Below the pieces are notes generated by a model. That model was not told the origin of the DNA and ran no database searches. It saw only the letters and a program-made list of their open reading frames with translations. Shown here in pieces: positions 10,456 through 13,609 of a DNA stretch of 64,000 nucleotides. Origin of the DNA: Candidatus Omnitrophota bacterium. GTDB taxonomy: Bacteria > Omnitrophota > Gorgyraeia > Gygaellales > Profunditerraquicolaceae. The stretch is taken from contig VGKG01000002.1 of assembly GCA_016867115.1 (NCBI GenBank), positions 70,449 through 134,448 on the forward strand, read 5' to 3'. Made by a program: the position numbers and the translations under genes. Position 1 is the first letter of the stretch; each line of letters starts with the position of its first letter.

Positions 10456-11284
10456 CGCGTCAAAAGGCGATTTCGGCCACATCCTGATCCTGGCGGGTTC
10501 GGCGAGATTTTCCGGGGCTGCTGCCCTTTGCGCCGAGGCGGCGCTGCGTTCCGGCAGCGGCCTGGTGACCCTTGCGCTCCCCGGCAGCCTTAATAGCGCG
10601 ATGATCAGGATAAAGTCCAAAGAGGTAATGACTCTGCCTCTGCCGGAGACAAAAGAAGGCGGGGTGAGCCTCTCAGCCTTCAAGGATCTTAAGGATTTTG
10701 CGGAAAATGCTGACATCGTGGCGCTGGGGCCCGGGCTTGGCCGCGATAAATCTACTCAGGCCCTGGTGCGTAAGATTGTATCCGGCTTAGATAAGCCTAT
10801 GGTCATTGACGCGGATGGCCTGAATGCATTAGCCGGCCGCCTGGATTTACTAAGAGCCAAGAGCCGTGAGCCAAGAGCAATACGTATATTGACCCCTCAT
10901 CCCGGAGAAATGGCCAGGCTCCTGGGTGCGACCGTAAGGAAGGTGCAGGCTGCAAGGAAAGAGATAGCCTCAGGGTTTGCCAAAGCATACAAAGTAACTC
11001 TGGTTTTAAAGGGGTTTCAAACCGTGGTTGCGGACTACCGGGGCAGAGCCTACCTAAATAAGACCGGTAACCCCGGGATGAGCACTGCGGGAAGCGGAGA
11101 TGTGCTCACCGGCATGATCGCGGCATTTGCAGGCCAGGGCCTGGATGCGTTTGATGCGGCTAAGTTTGGCGTTTATCTGCACGGCCTGGCCGGCGATTTG
11201 GCTGCTCAGGAAAAGACGCAAATTTCCTTGATTGCCTCGGATATTATTGGTAAAATCCCTGAGGCGATCAAGAGGTGCGGATAG
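10418..11284 (+). CDS. nnrD: ADP-dependent (S)-NAD(P)H-hydrate dehydratase (YjeF C-terminal / carbohydrate-kinase-like domain).
   Basis: KGDFGHILILAGS...GAAAL N-terminal motif and GSGDVLTGMIAAFAGQG near the C-terminus. Confidence 0.8.
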   Translation: MRLPTRLLSRRPNASKGDFGHILILAGSARFSGAAALCAEAALRSGSGLVTLALPGSLNSAMIRIKSKEVMTLPLPETKEGGVSLSAFKDLKDFAENADIVALGPGLGRDKSTQALVRKIVSGLDKPMVIDADGLNALAGRLDLLRAKSREPRAIRILTPHPGEMARLLGATVRKVQAARKEIASGFAKAYKVTLVLKGFQTVVADYRGRAYLNKTGNPGMSTAGSGDVLTGMIAAFAGQGLDAFDAAKFGVYLHGLAGDLAAQEKTQISLIASDIIGKIPEAIKRCG

Positions 11285-11292
11285 GTAGCGAC

Positions 11293-11368
11293 GCCGGCGT
11301 AGCTCAGCAGGCAGAGCAGCGGTTTTGTAAACCGCGGGTCGGGGGTTCGATTCCCTTCGCCGGCTCCA
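11293..11368 (+). tRNA. tRNA-Thr (anticodon TGT) with encoded CCA.
   Basis: Acceptor GCCGGCG/CGCCGGC, D-arm GCTC-AGCAGGCA-GAGC, anticodon stem-loop GCGGT-TTTGTAA-ACCGC, T-arm GGGGG-TTCGATT-CCCTT. Confidence 0.85.
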
Positions 11369-11376
11369 TAAAAGCT

Positions 11377-12048
11377 ATGAACAGGAGAAAATTGGATCTG
11401 AATAGAATAAAACATCTTTATTGGGGGCGAAAGCTTAGTGTGGAAGAGACCGCCAAGAAACTAGGCATCTCCGCATGGTCTTTATATGGCTTAATGCAAA
11501 AGAATAATATTCCCCGCCGTCTGCATTCTGAGGCCGGTTATTTGGCAAATAAGAATAAGCCGGCATTTGAGATCAGGATGGATCTTGATTACGTAGACGA
11601 AAGATTAAAAATCGCCGGATGCATGCTTTATTGGGCCGAAGGTTCGTTTAGTACTAATTTTGTCGATTTTACGAATAGCAATCCCGAGATGATAAAATTG
11701 TTTTTGTGTTTTTTAAGGGAAATCTGCGGTGTAAAAGAAGAGAGGTTAAGGGTTTATTTATATGCTTATAGCGCAGAGAATCTCGAGGCAATTAAACGAT
11801 ATTGGCAAAAGATTACGGGGATACCGGGTAGGCAATTTACAAAACCTTATATAAGAAGGCCTGTTCAGAATCTTACTAAAAGAAAATTACCGCAAGGTTT
11901 AGTGCATATTCGTTATAACGATAAGCGCCTGTTGGAAATTTTGAAAATTTGGATTGAAGAATACGTTCAATGGGCAGGTACCCAAGTGGCCAAAGGGGGC
12001 AGACTGTCAAAGGGCAGCGTTCTATCGAAAGGTAGAATGGAAAAGTAG
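11377..12048 (+). CDS. Putative homing endonuclease with an N-terminal helix-turn-helix and a degenerate single LAGLIDADG-like motif (IAGCMLYWAEGSF).
   Basis: Start is placed at MNRRKLDL, because the track start at 11275 lies inside tRNA-Thr. The HTH segment is LSVEETAKKLGISAWSLYGLMQKNNIP. The motif xAGxxxxxAEGSF is followed by a hydrophobic core typical of LAGLIDADG enzymes. The last ~25 codons read through tRNA-Tyr exon 1 and the start of the intron. Confidence 0.4.
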   Translation: MNRRKLDLNRIKHLYWGRKLSVEETAKKLGISAWSLYGLMQKNNIPRRLHSEAGYLANKNKPAFEIRMDLDYVDERLKIAGCMLYWAEGSFSTNFVDFTNSNPEMIKLFLCFLREICGVKEERLRVYLYAYSAENLEAIKRYWQKITGIPGRQFTKPYIRRPVQNLTKRKLPQGLVHIRYNDKRLLEILKIWIEEYVQWAGTQVAKGGRLSKGSVLSKGRMEK

Positions 12049-12250
12049 GTGAATTCAGGGAAGCCCCGGCGCTGCCGGGGTAATCCTGAGCGAAGTTCCG
12101 AGCAAAACGAGGAAAACGTGCAGAGACTAAGCGCCTACCGCCTAAAGCTAAAAGCCAAGGCGATGAGATAGTCCAAGCCTTAAGGTAACTTAAGGGCACT
12201 TGAAATCTGCTGCACTTGTGCTTCAGAGGTTCGAATCCTCTCCTGCCCAT
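11972..12250 (+). tRNA. tRNA-Tyr (anticodon GTA) split by a group I intron between anticodon-loop positions 35 and 36. Exon 1 is about 11972-12007 and exon 2 about 12203-12250.
   Basis: Exon 1 GGGCAGGTACCCAAGTGGCCAAAGGGGGCAGACTGT aligns closely with bacterial tRNA-Tyr: D-arm CCCGAGCGGCCAAAGGG and anticodon stem GCAGA. Exon 2 AAATCTGC completes the loop CTGT|AAA and the stem TCTGC, followed by a long variable arm, T-loop GGTTCGAATCC and acceptor CCTGCCC complementary to GGGCAGG. The T-stem/acceptor junction runs through a (CCT)3 tract and is 1-2 nt off canonical. Confidence 0.55.
12008..12202 (+). ncRNA. Group I self-splicing intron (~195 nt) within tRNA-Tyr.
   Basis: Exon 1 ends in U and the intron ends in G (CACTTG|AAAT). 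An internal guide-like GCAG lies right after the 5' splice site. The R-like element GTGCAGAGACTAAGCGCC is at 12118-12135 and the S-like element GAGATAGTCC at 12165-12174. GACTA/TAGTC can form P7. The size resembles small tRNA introns such as Azoarcus tRNA-Ile (~205 nt). Confidence 0.55.
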
Positions 12251-12610
12251 TTTGAAAATCCCGACAAGGGATTTTCAAAATGCACAAAGTGAGCGTTAAA
12301 AGCCCCGACAAGGGGCTTAGCGAACGGCGTGCGTACATCAAATATAATCCCGACAAGGGATTTTCAAAATGCACAAAGTGAGCGTTAAAAGCCCCGACAA
12401 GGGGCTTAGCGAACGGCGTGCGTACATCAAATATAATCCCGACAAGGGATTTTCAAAATGCACAGAGTGAGCGTTAAACGGCCCGACAAGGGGCTTAGCG
12501 AACGGCGTGCGTACATCAAATATAATCCCGACAAGGGATTTTCAAAATGCACAAAGTGAGCGTTAAAAGCCCCGACAAGGGGCTTAGCGAACGGCGTGCG
12601 TACATCAAAT
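12251..12610 (+). repeat. Tandem array of four 88-89-bp units. Each unit holds two hairpins with a CCC-GACAA-GGG core (stems up to 13 bp in copy 1) and a TATAAT box.
   Basis: Unit AATCCCGACAAGGGATTTTCAAAATGCACAAAGTGAGCGTTAAAAGCCCCGACAAGGGGCTTAGCGAACGGCGTGCGTACATCAAATAT repeats at 12258, 12347, 12436 and 12524. Copy 3 has small variants. The array ends at the RBS of the gene at 12622. Confidence 0.9.
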
Positions 12611-12621
12611 AGGAGGTTCCT

Positions 12622-13527
12622 ATGTCAAAAAAGAAGGTCATTATCTGGGTCATCGTAGCAATAGTTTTAGTTGTCCTGGGATTGTCTATCCTGGTCGCCG
12701 CTTTTGCGCCGAGCTTAAGGATGGGGTCTGCCGCAAGATATAAAGCTGACGCGGATTATTATGGCGAACAGTATTCACTTGCTCCCGAGTCTGCTGTCGG
12801 AGGGGCGCAGTACATGGCGCCGGCAAAGGCGATGGCCAAGCAGGCTCAGGCAGCGCCCTCGGTAAGAAAGCTTATCCGCAGGGCAGAATTGGATCTTGAA
12901 GTAAAATACTGCGATGAGACAGCAAAGAAGATAACTGATCTGGTCAACAGTTATTCCGGGATCATTATTGATGCCCAGATCCAGAAAGCGCCCAATGAAG
13001 CAAAGAGGGGCCAGACTATCCTGAAGGTCCTGCCCAAGGATTTTGATACGGTGCTGTTGAAATTAAAGGAGTTGGGAAAGGTGAACTCAGAGAGGGTCAC
13101 CGCAGAAGACGTCACCGAAGAATACGTAGACCTGGAGGCAAGGCTCAAGAATGCCAAGGCGGTTAAAGACAGGCTTATGGCGATCCTGCAGGATAAGGCG
13201 CGCACGGTCAAGGACATCCTGGAAGTCGAGCGGGAATTATACCGGGTAGGCGAGGAAATAGAGCGGATCGAGGGCAGGATGAAGTTCCTTGACCGCCAGG
13301 TGGATCTGGCTACCATTACCGTTAACTACTACGAACCGAAGGCTATAGCGCCGGAACCTTTGAATGTTTTTGAGCGGTTCAAGAAGACCGTCCGCCTCTC
13401 TATTGAGGTTTTTATCAACGTTTTCAATGCCGCGATCGTAGTCATTTTTGCCCTTATCCCGGTCTTCTTGTGGCTGGGCATCATCGTGGCGGTCGTGGTG
13501 TTGGTCAGGAAGTTCTTCAGAAAATAG
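12622..13527 (+). CDS. Membrane-anchored coiled-coil protein with N- and C-terminal TM helices, possibly DUF4349-like.
   Basis: N-terminal TM (IWVIVAIVLVVLGLSILVAAF), a central coiled coil (EDVTEEYVDLEARLKNAKAVKDRL...) and a C-terminal TM. The DUF assignment is from memory only. Confidence 0.35.
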   Translation: MSKKKVIIWVIVAIVLVVLGLSILVAAFAPSLRMGSAARYKADADYYGEQYSLAPESAVGGAQYMAPAKAMAKQAQAAPSVRKLIRRAELDLEVKYCDETAKKITDLVNSYSGIIIDAQIQKAPNEAKRGQTILKVLPKDFDTVLLKLKELGKVNSERVTAEDVTEEYVDLEARLKNAKAVKDRLMAILQDKARTVKDILEVERELYRVGEEIERIEGRMKFLDRQVDLATITVNYYEPKAIAPEPLNVFERFKKTVRLSIEVFINVFNAAIVVIFALIPVFLWLGIIVAVVVLVRKFFRK

Positions 13528-13538
13528 AGTAGTGCCGC

Positions 13539-13609
13539 GCGGGTGTAGTTCAATGGCAGAACAATAGCCTTCCAAGCTATATATGTCGGTTCGATTCCGA
13601 TCACCCGCT
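13539..13609 (+). tRNA. tRNA-Gly (anticodon TCC), CCA not encoded.
   Basis: Acceptor GCGGGTG/CACCCGC, D-arm GTTC-AATGGCA-GAAC, anticodon stem-loop ATAGC-CTTCCAA-GCTAT, T-arm GTCGG-TTCGATT-CCGAT. Confidence 0.8.

Follow-up and report, generated by a model that had tools for sequence, protein, structure and literature searches.

A tRNA-Tyr group I intron and an adjoining free-standing LAGLIDADG-fold gene as a candidate two-part mobile element in Omnitrophota

We analysed a 64-kb stretch of an Omnitrophota contig (the window) that carries a thr-tyr-gly tRNA cluster on its forward strand. The first gene of the cluster, tRNA-Thr(UGU), lies at 11293–11368 (ARAGORN; Rfam tRNA model, 66.7 bits), and 8 nt separate its 3' end from the start codon of a free-standing open reading frame (ORF; 11377–12048, forward strand, 223 aa), a proposed homing endonuclease gene. 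In most Omnitrophota loci this tRNA-Thr(UGU) gene likewise lies 5' of the ORF. A promoter-like site 5' of tRNA-Thr (TTGATT-17-TAAAAT with a TG before the -10; 11228–11256, forward strand; from a consensus scan only) is a possible promoter of a tRNA-Thr/ORF/tRNA-Tyr co-transcript, and the scan found nothing comparable immediately 5' of the ORF. The tRNA-Tyr(GUA) gene spans 11972–12249 on the same strand, intron included. Exon 1 (GGGCAGGTACCCAAGTGGCCAAAGGGGGCAGACTGT, ending in ...CAGACUGU; 11972–12007) supplies positions 1–35 and is overlapped in full by the 3' end of the ORF, and exon 2 (AAAUCUGC...; 12203–12249) supplies the long variable arm, the T arm, the acceptor and the discriminator A; CCA is not encoded. 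Both exons were read from the sequence and, joined in silico, are called by ARAGORN as a canonical tRNA-Tyr(gta) with a long variable arm. In default mode ARAGORN overlooks the unspliced gene, and in intron mode it calls a tRNA-Phe(GAA) with a 197-nt intron in the window and a tRNA-Ser(UGA) for several homologues; both calls are wrong because the intron placement is shifted. The boundaries given here follow the U...G rule and restore the anticodon loop. No second tRNA-Tyr gene was found by ARAGORN within the 64-kb window.

The two exons are separated by a 195-nt, ORF-less group I intron (12008–12202, forward strand) inserted between anticodon positions 35 and 36. The Rfam model Intron_gpI (RF00028) matches 11997–12195 over its full length (model 1–253) with 93.4 bits against a gathering score of 50, and the E-value of 1e-22 argues against a chance resemblance; homologous introns score 97–103 bits and a Patescibacteria intron (L056) 70.4 bits. 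All helices read on the forward strand: P1 (12004–12008/12013–12017), P2 (12018–12026/12031–12039), P3 (12045–12051/12132–12138), P4 (12055–12060/12084–12089), P5 (12064–12069/12075–12080), P6 (12090–12092/12117–12119 plus 12096–12099/12111–12114), P7 (12125–12129/12169–12173), P8 (12139–12142/12159–12162) and P9 (12178–12184/12189–12195), followed by omega-G at 12202. P1 pairs CUGU|C with G.GCAG in the window and CUGU|N with N'.GCAG generally; all 27 introns have the U.G at the 5' splice site, and among them covariation (GC, AU, CG and UA) links the first intron base to its P1 partner. P7 (GACUA/UAGUC) is unchanged in all 27 homologous introns and hence carries no covariation information. When P1–P9 are scored over the 27 introns, 96.2% of cells are paired, with compensatory change in 35 of 59 pairs; no shuffle out of 500 scored as high, and pairing in slid controls was 32–48%. 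The core P3–P9 with its P3/P7 pseudoknot is present in these counts, which were made on a manual P1/P7 structure. The fold returned by RNAalifold, which put the exon GACUGU on the P7 3' strand and displaced P1 and P7, was not used.

An earlier note, made from the DNA letters alone, had proposed a tRNA-Tyr(GUA) split by a group I intron of about 195 nt, starting after a U and ending in G. The Rfam model, the covariation and the in-silico exon ligation all agree with it: the length is exactly 195 nt, the GCAG read as a guide sequence lies in P1, the 'R' GACUA pairs with the 'S' UAGUC as P7, and the coordinates of every sequence feature described there were confirmed. The 35/36 insertion (CUGU|...G|AAA) is shared by the window and all 40 intron-bearing loci, and a terminal G precedes AAA in 36 of 36 introns whose 3' junction was read; among four introns added later, not every 3' end was readable. 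The helix set P1–P9, without P5abc and without P7.1/7.2, resembles that of minimal tRNA introns. P3–P6 differ markedly between the Omnitrophota and Patescibacteria versions. An endonuclease gene within the intron is ruled out, as the 195 nt hold just one mechanical 40-aa GTG frame. At the sequence level, the identity of the intron and its conserved structure are well established, and we infer that it is a self-splicing ribozyme.

The ORF runs open from an ATG at 11377 to a TAG at 12046–12048, and its 3' end traverses exon 1, P1 and P2 before stopping within the intron, in the 5' strand of P3. The earlier note had rightly placed the gene between tRNA-Thr and tRNA-Tyr, outside the intron; its reading of the frame through exon 1 also stands, and the end that it gave, in P1, falls short by P2 and the start of P3. 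The tail WAGTQVAKGGRL is exon 1 translated, and homologues use three different frames for it; the C-terminus of the functional protein maps to the 5' end of exon 1, which is 36 bp from the point of intron insertion. A search found 365 homologues with 53–67% identity, every one labelled 'hypothetical', so the ORF is not a chance frame. The family comprises at least 1,843 clusters at 50% identity (E<=1e-10) and has no Pfam model. A conserved N-terminus (L14, Y15) favours the ATG at 11377 over the 202-aa model of NCBI, and 28 residues are invariant across 36 Omnitrophota members.

The N-terminal part of the protein (aa 8–59; 11398–11553, forward strand) is a predicted helix-turn-helix (HTH) DNA-binding domain, with AF2 helices at 8–17, 22–29, 33–42 and 50–59. 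Pfam HTH_23, HTH_28, HTH_38 and HTH_7 match family members (best E=9e-9), and PHROG 7545, annotated 'HNH endonuclease', matches aa 9–56 (E=4.6e-6); by both resources the HTH is similar to DNA-binding modules of phage endonucleases. It is followed by a predicted LAGLIDADG-fold domain (aa 72–200; 11590–11976, forward strand) with the alpha-beta-beta-alpha-beta-beta-alpha core. In the AF2 model the motif helix (72–88; AGCMLYWAEG) terminates in ...MLYWAE88-G89, so that it ends in an acidic residue (Glu88, codon 11638–11640), as expected of the metal ligand of LAGLIDADG enzymes, and all 81 cellular and 10 viral members keep this Glu-Gly. Pfam LAGLIDADG families match neither the window protein nor any of 32 diverse members at E<=1, sequence and profile searches of NCBIfam and PDB with the protein found nothing, and hhalign against I-CreI gave a probability of 0.13. 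The first reading of the gene as HTH plus LAGLIDADG-like is thus borne out for the HTH (AF2, Pfam) and for the predicted fold, and not as a sequence-model match. The model establishes the predicted fold together with its conserved acidic residue; the product would be a homing endonuclease, probably acting as a homodimer.

The ORF family is strictly linked to tRNA genes. At 80 of 80 genome loci it adjoins a tRNA gene and sits in a tRNA gene cluster; of 77 loci scored for the stop codon, 49 have it inside the tRNA gene and 25 within 20 nt of it. Viral relatives on 10 of 10 large viral contigs all sit in tRNA arrays, next to many different tRNAs; no group I intron was found near them at the Rfam gathering threshold, a weak negative because the filters of the same run missed the genuine L056 intron. 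At 41 of 81 loci the ORF occurs without the intron, intact beside an intron-less tRNA-Tyr, and at seven loci it lies 5' of tRNA-Thr(GGU) (the Thr gene is on the contig in six, and the L052 contig ends earlier). These intron-less neighbours, which are tRNA genes in Patescibacteria and phage tRNA arrays, argue that the ORF is independent of the intron. An anticodon stem CAGR/YCUG is found at all 40 intron-bearing ORF-positive loci and at 0 of 41 intron-less ones. In Patescibacteria the CAGR stem is present in 3 of 3 intron-bearing alleles, versus a CAGA stem in 1 of 10 ORF-less baseline lineages, which were sampled through their L33 neighbours. Reading the altered anticodon stems of ORF-positive, intron-less Patescibacteria as 'resistance alleles' was rejected: ORF-less lineages mostly have non-CAGA stems too (9 of 10), so these stems are no evidence of resistance. 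The invariant CAGR stem could instead reflect an RNA-level requirement or exon co-conversion, and not enzyme specificity.

Further loci were surveyed with an exon-1 probe blind to both ORF and intron. Of the 120 loci recovered, 113 are uninterrupted and none of these has the ORF; six carry the intron, three with a full ORF, one with an ORF deletion derivative and two (L155 and L165) without an ORF; one ends at a contig edge. In the 35 loci that have Omnitrophota synteny, 4 of 6 interrupted genes are accompanied by the ORF, against 0 of 29 uninterrupted ones (Fisher p=3e-4; with full-length ORFs only, of which there are three, p ~0.003 by hypergeometric calculation), with the loci not phylogenetically independent in either calculation. 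No full-length or remnant ORF was found beside an uninterrupted CAGACTGT|AAATCTG, and none beside an uninterrupted CAGACTGTAAATCTG, either among the 113 probe loci or among the 41 intron-less ORF-positive loci; given the non-CAGA baseline of Patescibacteria, the missing ORF/CAGACTGTAAATCTG combination carries weight within Omnitrophota only. The states found are thus empty site, ORF plus intron, intron only and ORF deletion derivative. They are interleaved on a dendrogram of host markers, on which the empty L104 is 83% identical to L006 with ORF and intron. Degeneration is seen in L200, with an in-frame deletion of the LAGLIDADG core, and in L040, a nonsense copy.

One locus pair (L004/L006) shows transfer between hosts. 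Its ORFs are 94–97% identical and its intron cores 94%, versus 74% for the flanking housekeeping proteins, and the step in nucleotide identity starts at the ORF start and stops at the end of tRNA-Tyr. As judged from sequence identity, ORF, tRNA-Tyr and intron moved as a block in this pair. Across loci the ORF has a mean pairwise identity of 55% versus 56% for neighbouring housekeeping genes (r=0.52), and most copies are intact; such slow, housekeeping-like evolution would not usually be expected if the gene were selfish and nothing else. The empty sites in close relatives and the incongruence of L004/L006 nevertheless led us to reject a housekeeping gene inherited vertically throughout the phylum. 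Comparison of the loci thereby documents insertion polymorphism, degeneration and block transfer of the putative element.

The roughly 230 related loci point to a joint spread of the ORF and the intron as an apparent two-part selfish element, and introns that move in this way have until now been documented in phages only. We give about even chances to the reading that the two form a mobile element in the thr-tyr-gly tRNA operon that would spread by collaborative homing. One part would be a small ORF-less ribozyme between U35 and A36 whose splicing is needed for tRNA-Tyr, and the other a free-standing gene abutting the 5' end of tRNA-Tyr that encodes an HTH and single-LAGLIDADG-fold protein. 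The enzyme would cut intron-less tRNA-Tyr at or near the near-palindromic anticodon arm (CAGACTGT|AAATCTG; suggested target ACAGACTGTAAATCTGT), and the carrier genome would be shielded since the intron splits the target site. The broken chromosome would be repaired on a copy that bears the element, and the recipient would gain both ORF and intron, which would be converted together because they are only 36 bp apart. We infer nuclease activity, cleavage position, intron-conferred immunity and self-splicing from the comparative data. The layout found is that of collaborative or trans homing, with an endonuclease-like gene outside the intron and within co-conversion distance, and an intron with no credible ORF of its own; co-inheritance and insertion polymorphism against empty sites are found as well. 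Collaborative homing had already been raised in the earlier note, and it gains support from the polymorphism, the absence of the ORF beside an uninterrupted target, the deletion derivative and the block transfer.

The position of the cut is where the closest rival differs. An active ORF endonuclease may cut the tRNA operon at a different place (such as the 5' junction, some other stretch of tRNA-Tyr or, in some lineages, tRNA-Thr(GGU)), with immunity due to differing sequence or to the inserted ORF; the intron would then be an independent, non-autonomous passenger, co-converted because it lies within ~40–240 bp. We consider such trans or 'intronless' homing possible, though doubtful. It would accommodate the 41 of 81 loci with an ORF and no intron, the seven loci directly 5' of tRNA-Thr(GGU), the viral relatives near varied tRNAs with no intron at the Rfam gathering threshold and the intron-only loci L155 and L165, and MobE offers a precedent for cutting away from an intron insertion site (PMC2790892). 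However, a cut elsewhere should yield ORF-only recombinants with the common CAGA stem, and the Omnitrophota-type ORF accompanies an uninterrupted tRNA-Tyr in 0 of 29 and 0 of 113 loci. The insertion point is also the centre of the near-palindromic anticodon arm, where family biology leads one to expect a homodimeric LAGLIDADG cut.

The slow rate of the ORF, equal to that of neighbouring housekeeping genes, and its 28 invariant residues in 36 Omnitrophota members would also suit a domesticated non-nuclease, a LAGLIDADG-derived DNA- or RNA-binding factor under host selection, such as a tRNA-operon regulator akin to WhiA or a maturase or chaperone for tRNA group I introns; LAGLIDADG maturases occur in organelles. 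We hold this to be unlikely. The gene is patchy in Omnitrophota and Patescibacteria, close relatives have empty sites, L200 and L040 carry a deleted and a nonsense copy, the block has moved between hosts and relatives sit in phage tRNA arrays. The acidic residue at the motif end is invariant here but lost in WhiA, and the two degenerate domains, C-terminal HTH and uniform presence of a WhiA-like regulator were not found for the ORF. Occurrence of the ORF without the intron, and of the intron without the ORF, makes an obligate maturase role unlikely, and related introns at position 35/36 self-splice in vitro without protein (PMC13011429). It is more improbable again that the two are coincidental neighbours, the intron persisting alone by vertical descent or by reverse splicing at CUGU beside an unrelated or inactive ORF remnant. 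The guide sequence does require only CUGU, which is present in every tRNA-Tyr, there are intron-only loci, and most bacterial tRNA introns have no endonuclease gene (PMC13011429). Yet ORF and intron are strongly associated in Omnitrophota (p=3e-4, loci not phylogenetically independent), the similarity of L004 and L006 is raised jointly for both, and reverse splicing leaves the restriction of the intron to CAGR-stem alleles unexplained.

Collaborative homing may be part of a broader picture, which we put forward tentatively and think less likely than not. The ORF family would be a very large, previously unrecognised, tRNA-specialised branch of LAGLIDADG-fold endonucleases in Omnitrophota, Patescibacteria and jumbo phages, and the Omnitrophota element would have been caught before fusion of the endonuclease gene with the intron, with empty, intron-only, ORF-plus-intron and decaying-ORF loci as natural intermediates. 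Because the ORF stop falls within the tRNA or intron, translation would have to compete with RNase P cleavage and with folding of the ribozyme in a co-transcript, and processed messages, lacking a stop codon, would keep nuclease expression low. The first association of homing endonuclease genes with group I introns is an old question, and the collaborative homing route so far rests on two phage systems; if the present reading is true, a widespread cellular system with many natural intermediates would open it to tests by comparative genomics and simple biochemistry. The ORF family is a new protein family and a potential source of long-target nucleases. Annotation would need a rule for it as well: current records call the ORF 'hypothetical' and begin it at the wrong codon, tRNA-Tyr is overlooked, and without intron-aware detection genomes of these phyla seem devoid of tRNA-Tyr.

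Group I introns at 35/36 were described in Patescibacteria tRNA genes, including one tRNA-Tyr(GUA) case (Nakagawa et al. 2026, PMC13011429). They share the position, small size and lack of an ORF with the intron described here, are likewise overlooked by standard tRNA finders, and related ones self-splice in vitro. That survey covered complete genomes only and sought endonuclease genes only inside introns >500 bp; bacterial tRNA introns were judged of limited mobility, largely immobile, because internal endonuclease genes are absent. For tRNA-Tyr at least, an external adjacent endonuclease gene would alter this view. Its supplement yielded a single Omnitrophota entry, a tRNA-fMet intron, whereas the present intron splits a tRNA-Tyr of Omnitrophota and is linked to an endonuclease-like gene that adjoins it from outside.

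Collaborative and trans homing have been described in phages (PMC3984707; PMC2790892). In the collaborative case, the free-standing F-CphI and the ORF-less psbA intron of cyanophage S-PM2 (Hausner, Hafez & Edgell 2014, PMC3984707), both components target a single conserved site and are inherited together, and the intron allele is expected to be immune, as proposed here. The host is a phage instead of Omnitrophota and a few Patescibacteria, the target a protein-coding gene instead of a tRNA gene, and the phage enzymes of collaborative homing have an Endo VII-like or HNH domain instead of a predicted LAGLIDADG fold with HTH. Unlike F-CphI, the ORF here overlaps exon 1 and the first three intron helices, and the cut at the insertion site is putative here. 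In trans homing of the T4 nrdB intron by MobE (Wilson & Edgell 2009, PMC2790892), an adjacent free-standing endonuclease likewise mobilises a non-autonomous intron and close spacing is required; however, MobE is an HNH enzyme that nicks off the insertion site, and the T4 intron holds a defunct endonuclease gene whereas the intron here is ORF-less. A known intron-encoded homing enzyme also targets the anticodon region of an intron-less tRNA gene, but it belongs to another structural family and its gene lies inside the intron instead of outside.

With the single-motif homodimers I-CreI, I-CeuI and I-MsoI the ORF product shares the predicted core fold and a motif helix ending in an acidic residue and Gly. 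It differs from I-CreI-type enzymes in an extra helix between strands 3 and 4, in undetectable sequence similarity to Pfam LAGLIDADG families and in its free-standing gene near tRNA genes, not within an intron or intein. WhiA, too, has an HTH, which is C-terminal there and N-terminal in the ORF product; WhiA has two domains without catalytic acids, whereas the ORF product has a single predicted domain that retains the acidic residue.

The tRNA-Tyr gene of the window is split between anticodon positions 35 and 36 by a small group I intron. With the 5' splice site placed after a U and a G taken as the last intron base, the 195-nt intron spans 12008-12202, between exon 1 at 11972-12007, whose last bases are ...CAGACUGU, and exon 2 at 12203-12249. 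Ligated in silico, the exons give a tRNA-Tyr(GUA) (ARAGORN) that has the long variable arm typical of bacterial tRNA-Tyr and no encoded CCA, and in Rfam the stretch 11997-12195 matches the group I intron model over its full length (93.4 bits, E=1e-22; gathering score 50); both results agree with the split tRNA-Tyr(GUA) proposed in an earlier note on this DNA. ARAGORN placed tRNA-Thr(UGU) at 11293-11368, missed tRNA-Tyr in a default run on the window and mis-called it tRNA-Phe in intron mode, which fits a report that tRNA introns at the 35/36 site evade standard tools (PMC13011429). The deposited annotation, judged from default tRNA finders, apparently lacks the gene.

We drew a P1-P9 fold by hand, with P7 as a pseudoknot, and scored its pairs across an alignment of 27 intron homologues taken from related loci. 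Standard pairs fill 96.2% of cells and 35 of 59 pairs have changed on both sides, values that none of 500 shuffles reached, and slid-partner controls pair at 32-48%. Across the 27 introns P1 joins CUGU, followed across the splice site by N, to N'.GCAG; its U.G pair never varies, N, the first base of the intron, covaries with N', and P7 is invariantly GACUA/UAGUC. The GCAG guide sequence and GACTA/TAGTC pairing read earlier from the single sequence thus fall in P1 and P7 of a P1-P9 fold shared by homologues of 12008-12202. The window intron, too short at 195 nt to hold an internal ORF, probably self-splices, as shown in vitro for related Patescibacteria 35/36 introns (PMC13011429). RNAalifold favours pairing the exon 1 end GACUGU with the P7 3' strand AUAGUC through six pairs invariant in 27/27 sequences (window 12002-12007 with 12168-12173; columns 3-8 with 269-274 of A2, the alignment of homologous tRNA-Tyr introns). 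This may be a chance effect of exon 1 resembling the P7 5' strand, or a competing precursor helix, and could bear on the invariance of the CAGA stem among intron-bearing alleles. Three Patescibacteria introns (L056, L079, L080) have P1, P2, P7 and P9 in common with the Omnitrophota introns and differ strongly in P3-P6; that of L079 measures 373 nt, and that of L056 scores 70.4 bits in Rfam under lax filters only. The two groups may be two lineages at one insertion site.

The ORF between tRNA-Thr and tRNA-Tyr (223 aa, ATG 11377 to TAG 12046-12048) starts 8 nt 3' of tRNA-Thr. The earlier note had its 3' end reading through exon 1 into P1; it does so and extends further, spanning P2 and stopping within the P3 5' strand. 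The deposited NCBI model FJZ09_01600 has 202 aa, apparently from GTG at codon 22, and the conservation of residues 8-21, with L14 and Y15 nearly invariant, supports ATG 11377 as the true start. The C-terminal tail 'WAGTQVAKGGRL...' is translated tRNA-Tyr exon 1, which some homologues read in other frames; the overlap therefore reflects no constraint on the protein. Sequence-library searches with the protein returned weak HTH matches only; among 32 diverse family members Pfam HTH_23, HTH_28, HTH_38 and HTH_7 match (best E=9e-9), no Pfam LAGLIDADG model does, and a PHROG annotated HNH endonuclease aligns with 48 N-terminal residues of the ORF protein. AlphaFold2 (pLDDT 81 full length, 88.9 for residues 62-200) predicts four N-terminal helices, a helix at 72-88 ending MLYWAE-G and a strand-rich alpha/beta domain, and the Glu-Gly closing the motif helix is invariant in all members examined. 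The proposal of an HTH plus LAGLIDADG-like protein is therefore supported structurally, its HTH part in Pfam as well; LAGLIDADG membership by sequence is not supported.

Relatives of the ORF are numerous, and those whose loci we examined lie at tRNA genes. A word-indexed search gave 365 homologues, all 'hypothetical' and mainly from Candidatus Omnitrophica/Omnitrophota, an exhaustive profile search 1,843 50%-identity clusters at E<=1e-10, and GTDB species representatives 337 stretches encoding a relative. The best 80 of these 337 comprise about 40 loci of Omnitrophota type, at 45-63% identity, and about 40 of Patescibacteria type, at 39-48%. In all 80 the ORF sits within a conserved thr-tyr-gly-thr tRNA operon, its 3' end up against the start of the next tRNA gene. 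That gene is usually tRNA-Tyr and in seven loci tRNA-Thr(GGU), confirmed in six (in the seventh, L052, the contig ends before it). Of 77 loci scored, 49 have the stop codon within the tRNA and 25 have it <=20 nt upstream. Ten contigs of a viral collection (11-498 kb, seven >140 kb) encode relatives, 28-35% identical and keeping MLYWAEG, all ten in tRNA gene arrays. Two contigs of one MAG (JAZDFW01; loci L003 and L029) each carry Thr/ORF/Tyr(intron)/Gly with differing ORF sequences, the product of either a mixed bin or a genome with two operon copies.

Several further features surround the operon. Directly 3' of tRNA-Tyr, a tandem array (12257-12611) holds four 89-nt units, 97% identical, each with two hairpins of loop CGACAAG, AATCCCGACAAGGGATT and AGCCCCGACAAGGGGCT, and without a match to any Rfam family. 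Chance would put 0.5 copies of CCGACAAGG in the 64-kb window; there are eight, all within this array. L104, an empty locus with neither intron nor ORF, has a comparable hairpin, TTTTTCCGACAAGGAAAAA, 3' of its tRNA-Tyr. Between tRNA-Tyr and tRNA-Gly(UCC) (13539-13609), a 301-aa ORF with hydrophobic N- and C-terminal segments (12622-13527) has no tblastn relative in 200 related loci. In those loci Tyr and Gly often lie side by side, and the ORF seems to be an insertion into the tRNA cluster specific to this lineage. The spacer 3' of tRNA-Thr carries a second copy of the tRNA-Thr 3' third (GGGTCGGGGGTTCAAATCCTCTCGTCGGCT) in empty L104 (10340-10460) and in occupied L006 (2828-2950), so this duplication predates ORF insertion. 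The Patescibacteria locus L055 reads, at 1810-2071, ORF, intron-less tRNA-Tyr and a split tRNA with a 188-nt insert undetected by Rfam at gathering threshold; ARAGORN calls the split tRNA tRNA-Arg(GCG), a mis-call listed for 'divergent' group I introns of tRNA-Thr(GGU) (PMC13011429). Just 3' of the tRNA-Tyr/tRNA-Thr/rpmG cluster, ORF-less Patescibacteria loci carry short genes of 53-78 aa with a GIY-YIG domain, Pfam PF01541 (L217 2757-2990 and 3684-3920; L218 2833-2994; L220 2757-2990), and a second nuclease-like gene class may frequent this operon.

Counting the window and the best 80 of the 337 loci, 40 of 81 ORF-bearing loci have a tRNA-Tyr intron, always at 35/36 (the window, 36/40 Omnitrophota-type and 3/40 Patescibacteria-type loci); since 41 lack it, the ORF does not need the intron. 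Metagenome contigs scanned for Omnitrophota-type exon 1, blind to ORF and intron, yielded 120 loci: 113 with uninterrupted CAGACTGTAAATCTG and no ORF, three with intron and full ORF (L084, L089, L145), one with intron and an ORF whose LAGLIDADG core is deleted in frame (L200), two with intron and no ORF (L155, L165) and one truncated by the contig end. Thirty empty loci have the window synteny pdxJ-acpS-yjeF-tRNA-Thr-tRNA-Tyr...thyX-like, and their identities span the range seen in Omnitrophota loci that bear the ORF. Within this synteny the ORF is present in 4/6 interrupted versus 0/29 uninterrupted loci (Fisher p=3e-4), or 3/6 versus 0/29 for full ORFs (p ~0.003, our hypergeometric arithmetic); the earlier note had called for such a comparison with intron-less loci. 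Element states interleave on a pdxJ+yjeF similarity dendrogram: on these markers empty L104 and ORF+intron L006 are 83% identical, L006 and the deletion derivative L200 84%, and ORF+intron L005 is nearest to empty L188 (79%). The ORF of L200 (6206-6590) is decaying, an in-frame deletion of about 80 codons having removed the motif helix and Glu; at about 3240 in L040 a nonsense codon replaces the Tyr of MLYWAEG, possibly by error in an assembly with N runs. ORF-less Patescibacteria loci read trmD-tRNA-Tyr-tRNA-Thr(GGU)-rpmG and ORF-bearing ones keep this synteny and have the ORF as an insert on the 5' side of tRNA-Tyr or of tRNA-Thr(GGU), so there too the ORF is an insertion polymorphism.

ORF and host-marker identities correlate moderately (r=0.52). 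In the clearest outlier, L004 versus L006, the ORF is 94-97% and the intron core 94% identical against 74% for adjacent housekeeping proteins; L004 versus L027 shows the reverse (host 76%, ORF 61%). Sliding nucleotide comparison of L004 and L006 gives 55-88% upstream and 88-100% from ORF start to tRNA-Tyr end, beyond which alignment is lost, a step indicating that ORF, tRNA-Tyr exons and intron moved or were converted as one block.

The presumed target site also divides the alleles. A CAGR/YCUG anticodon stem occurs in 40/40 intron-bearing alleles, the pair farther from the loop varying, and in 0/41 intron-less ORF-bearing ones; the Patescibacteria intron is confined to rare CAGR alleles (3/3), and within Omnitrophota we saw no ORF beside an uninterrupted site. 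Exon co-conversion or an RNA-level requirement could lie behind these patterns. We rejected the changed stems of ORF-bearing Patescibacteria as 'resistance' alleles, since among ten ORF-less lineages sampled via L33 genes a non-CAGA stem is normal (9/10; CAGA in 1/10).

The most economical reading takes the ORF for a free-standing homing endonuclease gene that acts as one element with the ORF-less ribozyme. By collaborative homing, as documented in phages (PMC3984707), the enzyme would cut at the insertion site and the intron would give immunity; we give this an even chance. The association of ORF and intron, the empty sites and the block movement speak for this mechanism, of which the arrangement had reminded the earlier note. 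The arm ACAGACUGUAAAUCUGU approaches a palindrome around position 35, and the intron sits at its centre, presumably where a single-motif LAGLIDADG enzyme acting as a homodimer would cut. Trans homing, also documented in phages (PMC2790892), in which the enzyme cuts nearby and the intron is a passenger, is possible and somewhat unlikely. That the ORF is a domesticated non-nuclease is improbable, its motif helix ending in an invariant Glu-Gly; that ORF and intron are neighbours by coincidence, given 4/6 versus 0/29, we consider less probable still.

An ORF pressed tightly against the tRNA would fit selection for close linkage to the break and, speculatively, RNase P cleavage at 11972 would as a side effect cut the ORF message upstream of its stop codon. 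A promoter-like site is found only upstream of tRNA-Thr, consistent with co-transcription.

In the searchable literature we found no description of the tRNA-Tyr intron in Omnitrophota, of this tRNA-gene-associated LAGLIDADG-fold family, or of a cellular, tRNA-based case in which an intron lacking an ORF is linked to an endonuclease gene outside it. Collaborative homing in phages is already known and so are bacterial tRNA genes with group I introns, along with the 35/36 insertion site, one Patescibacteria tRNA-Tyr included (PMC13011429); that 2026 survey sought endonuclease genes only inside long introns and judged mobility to be limited.
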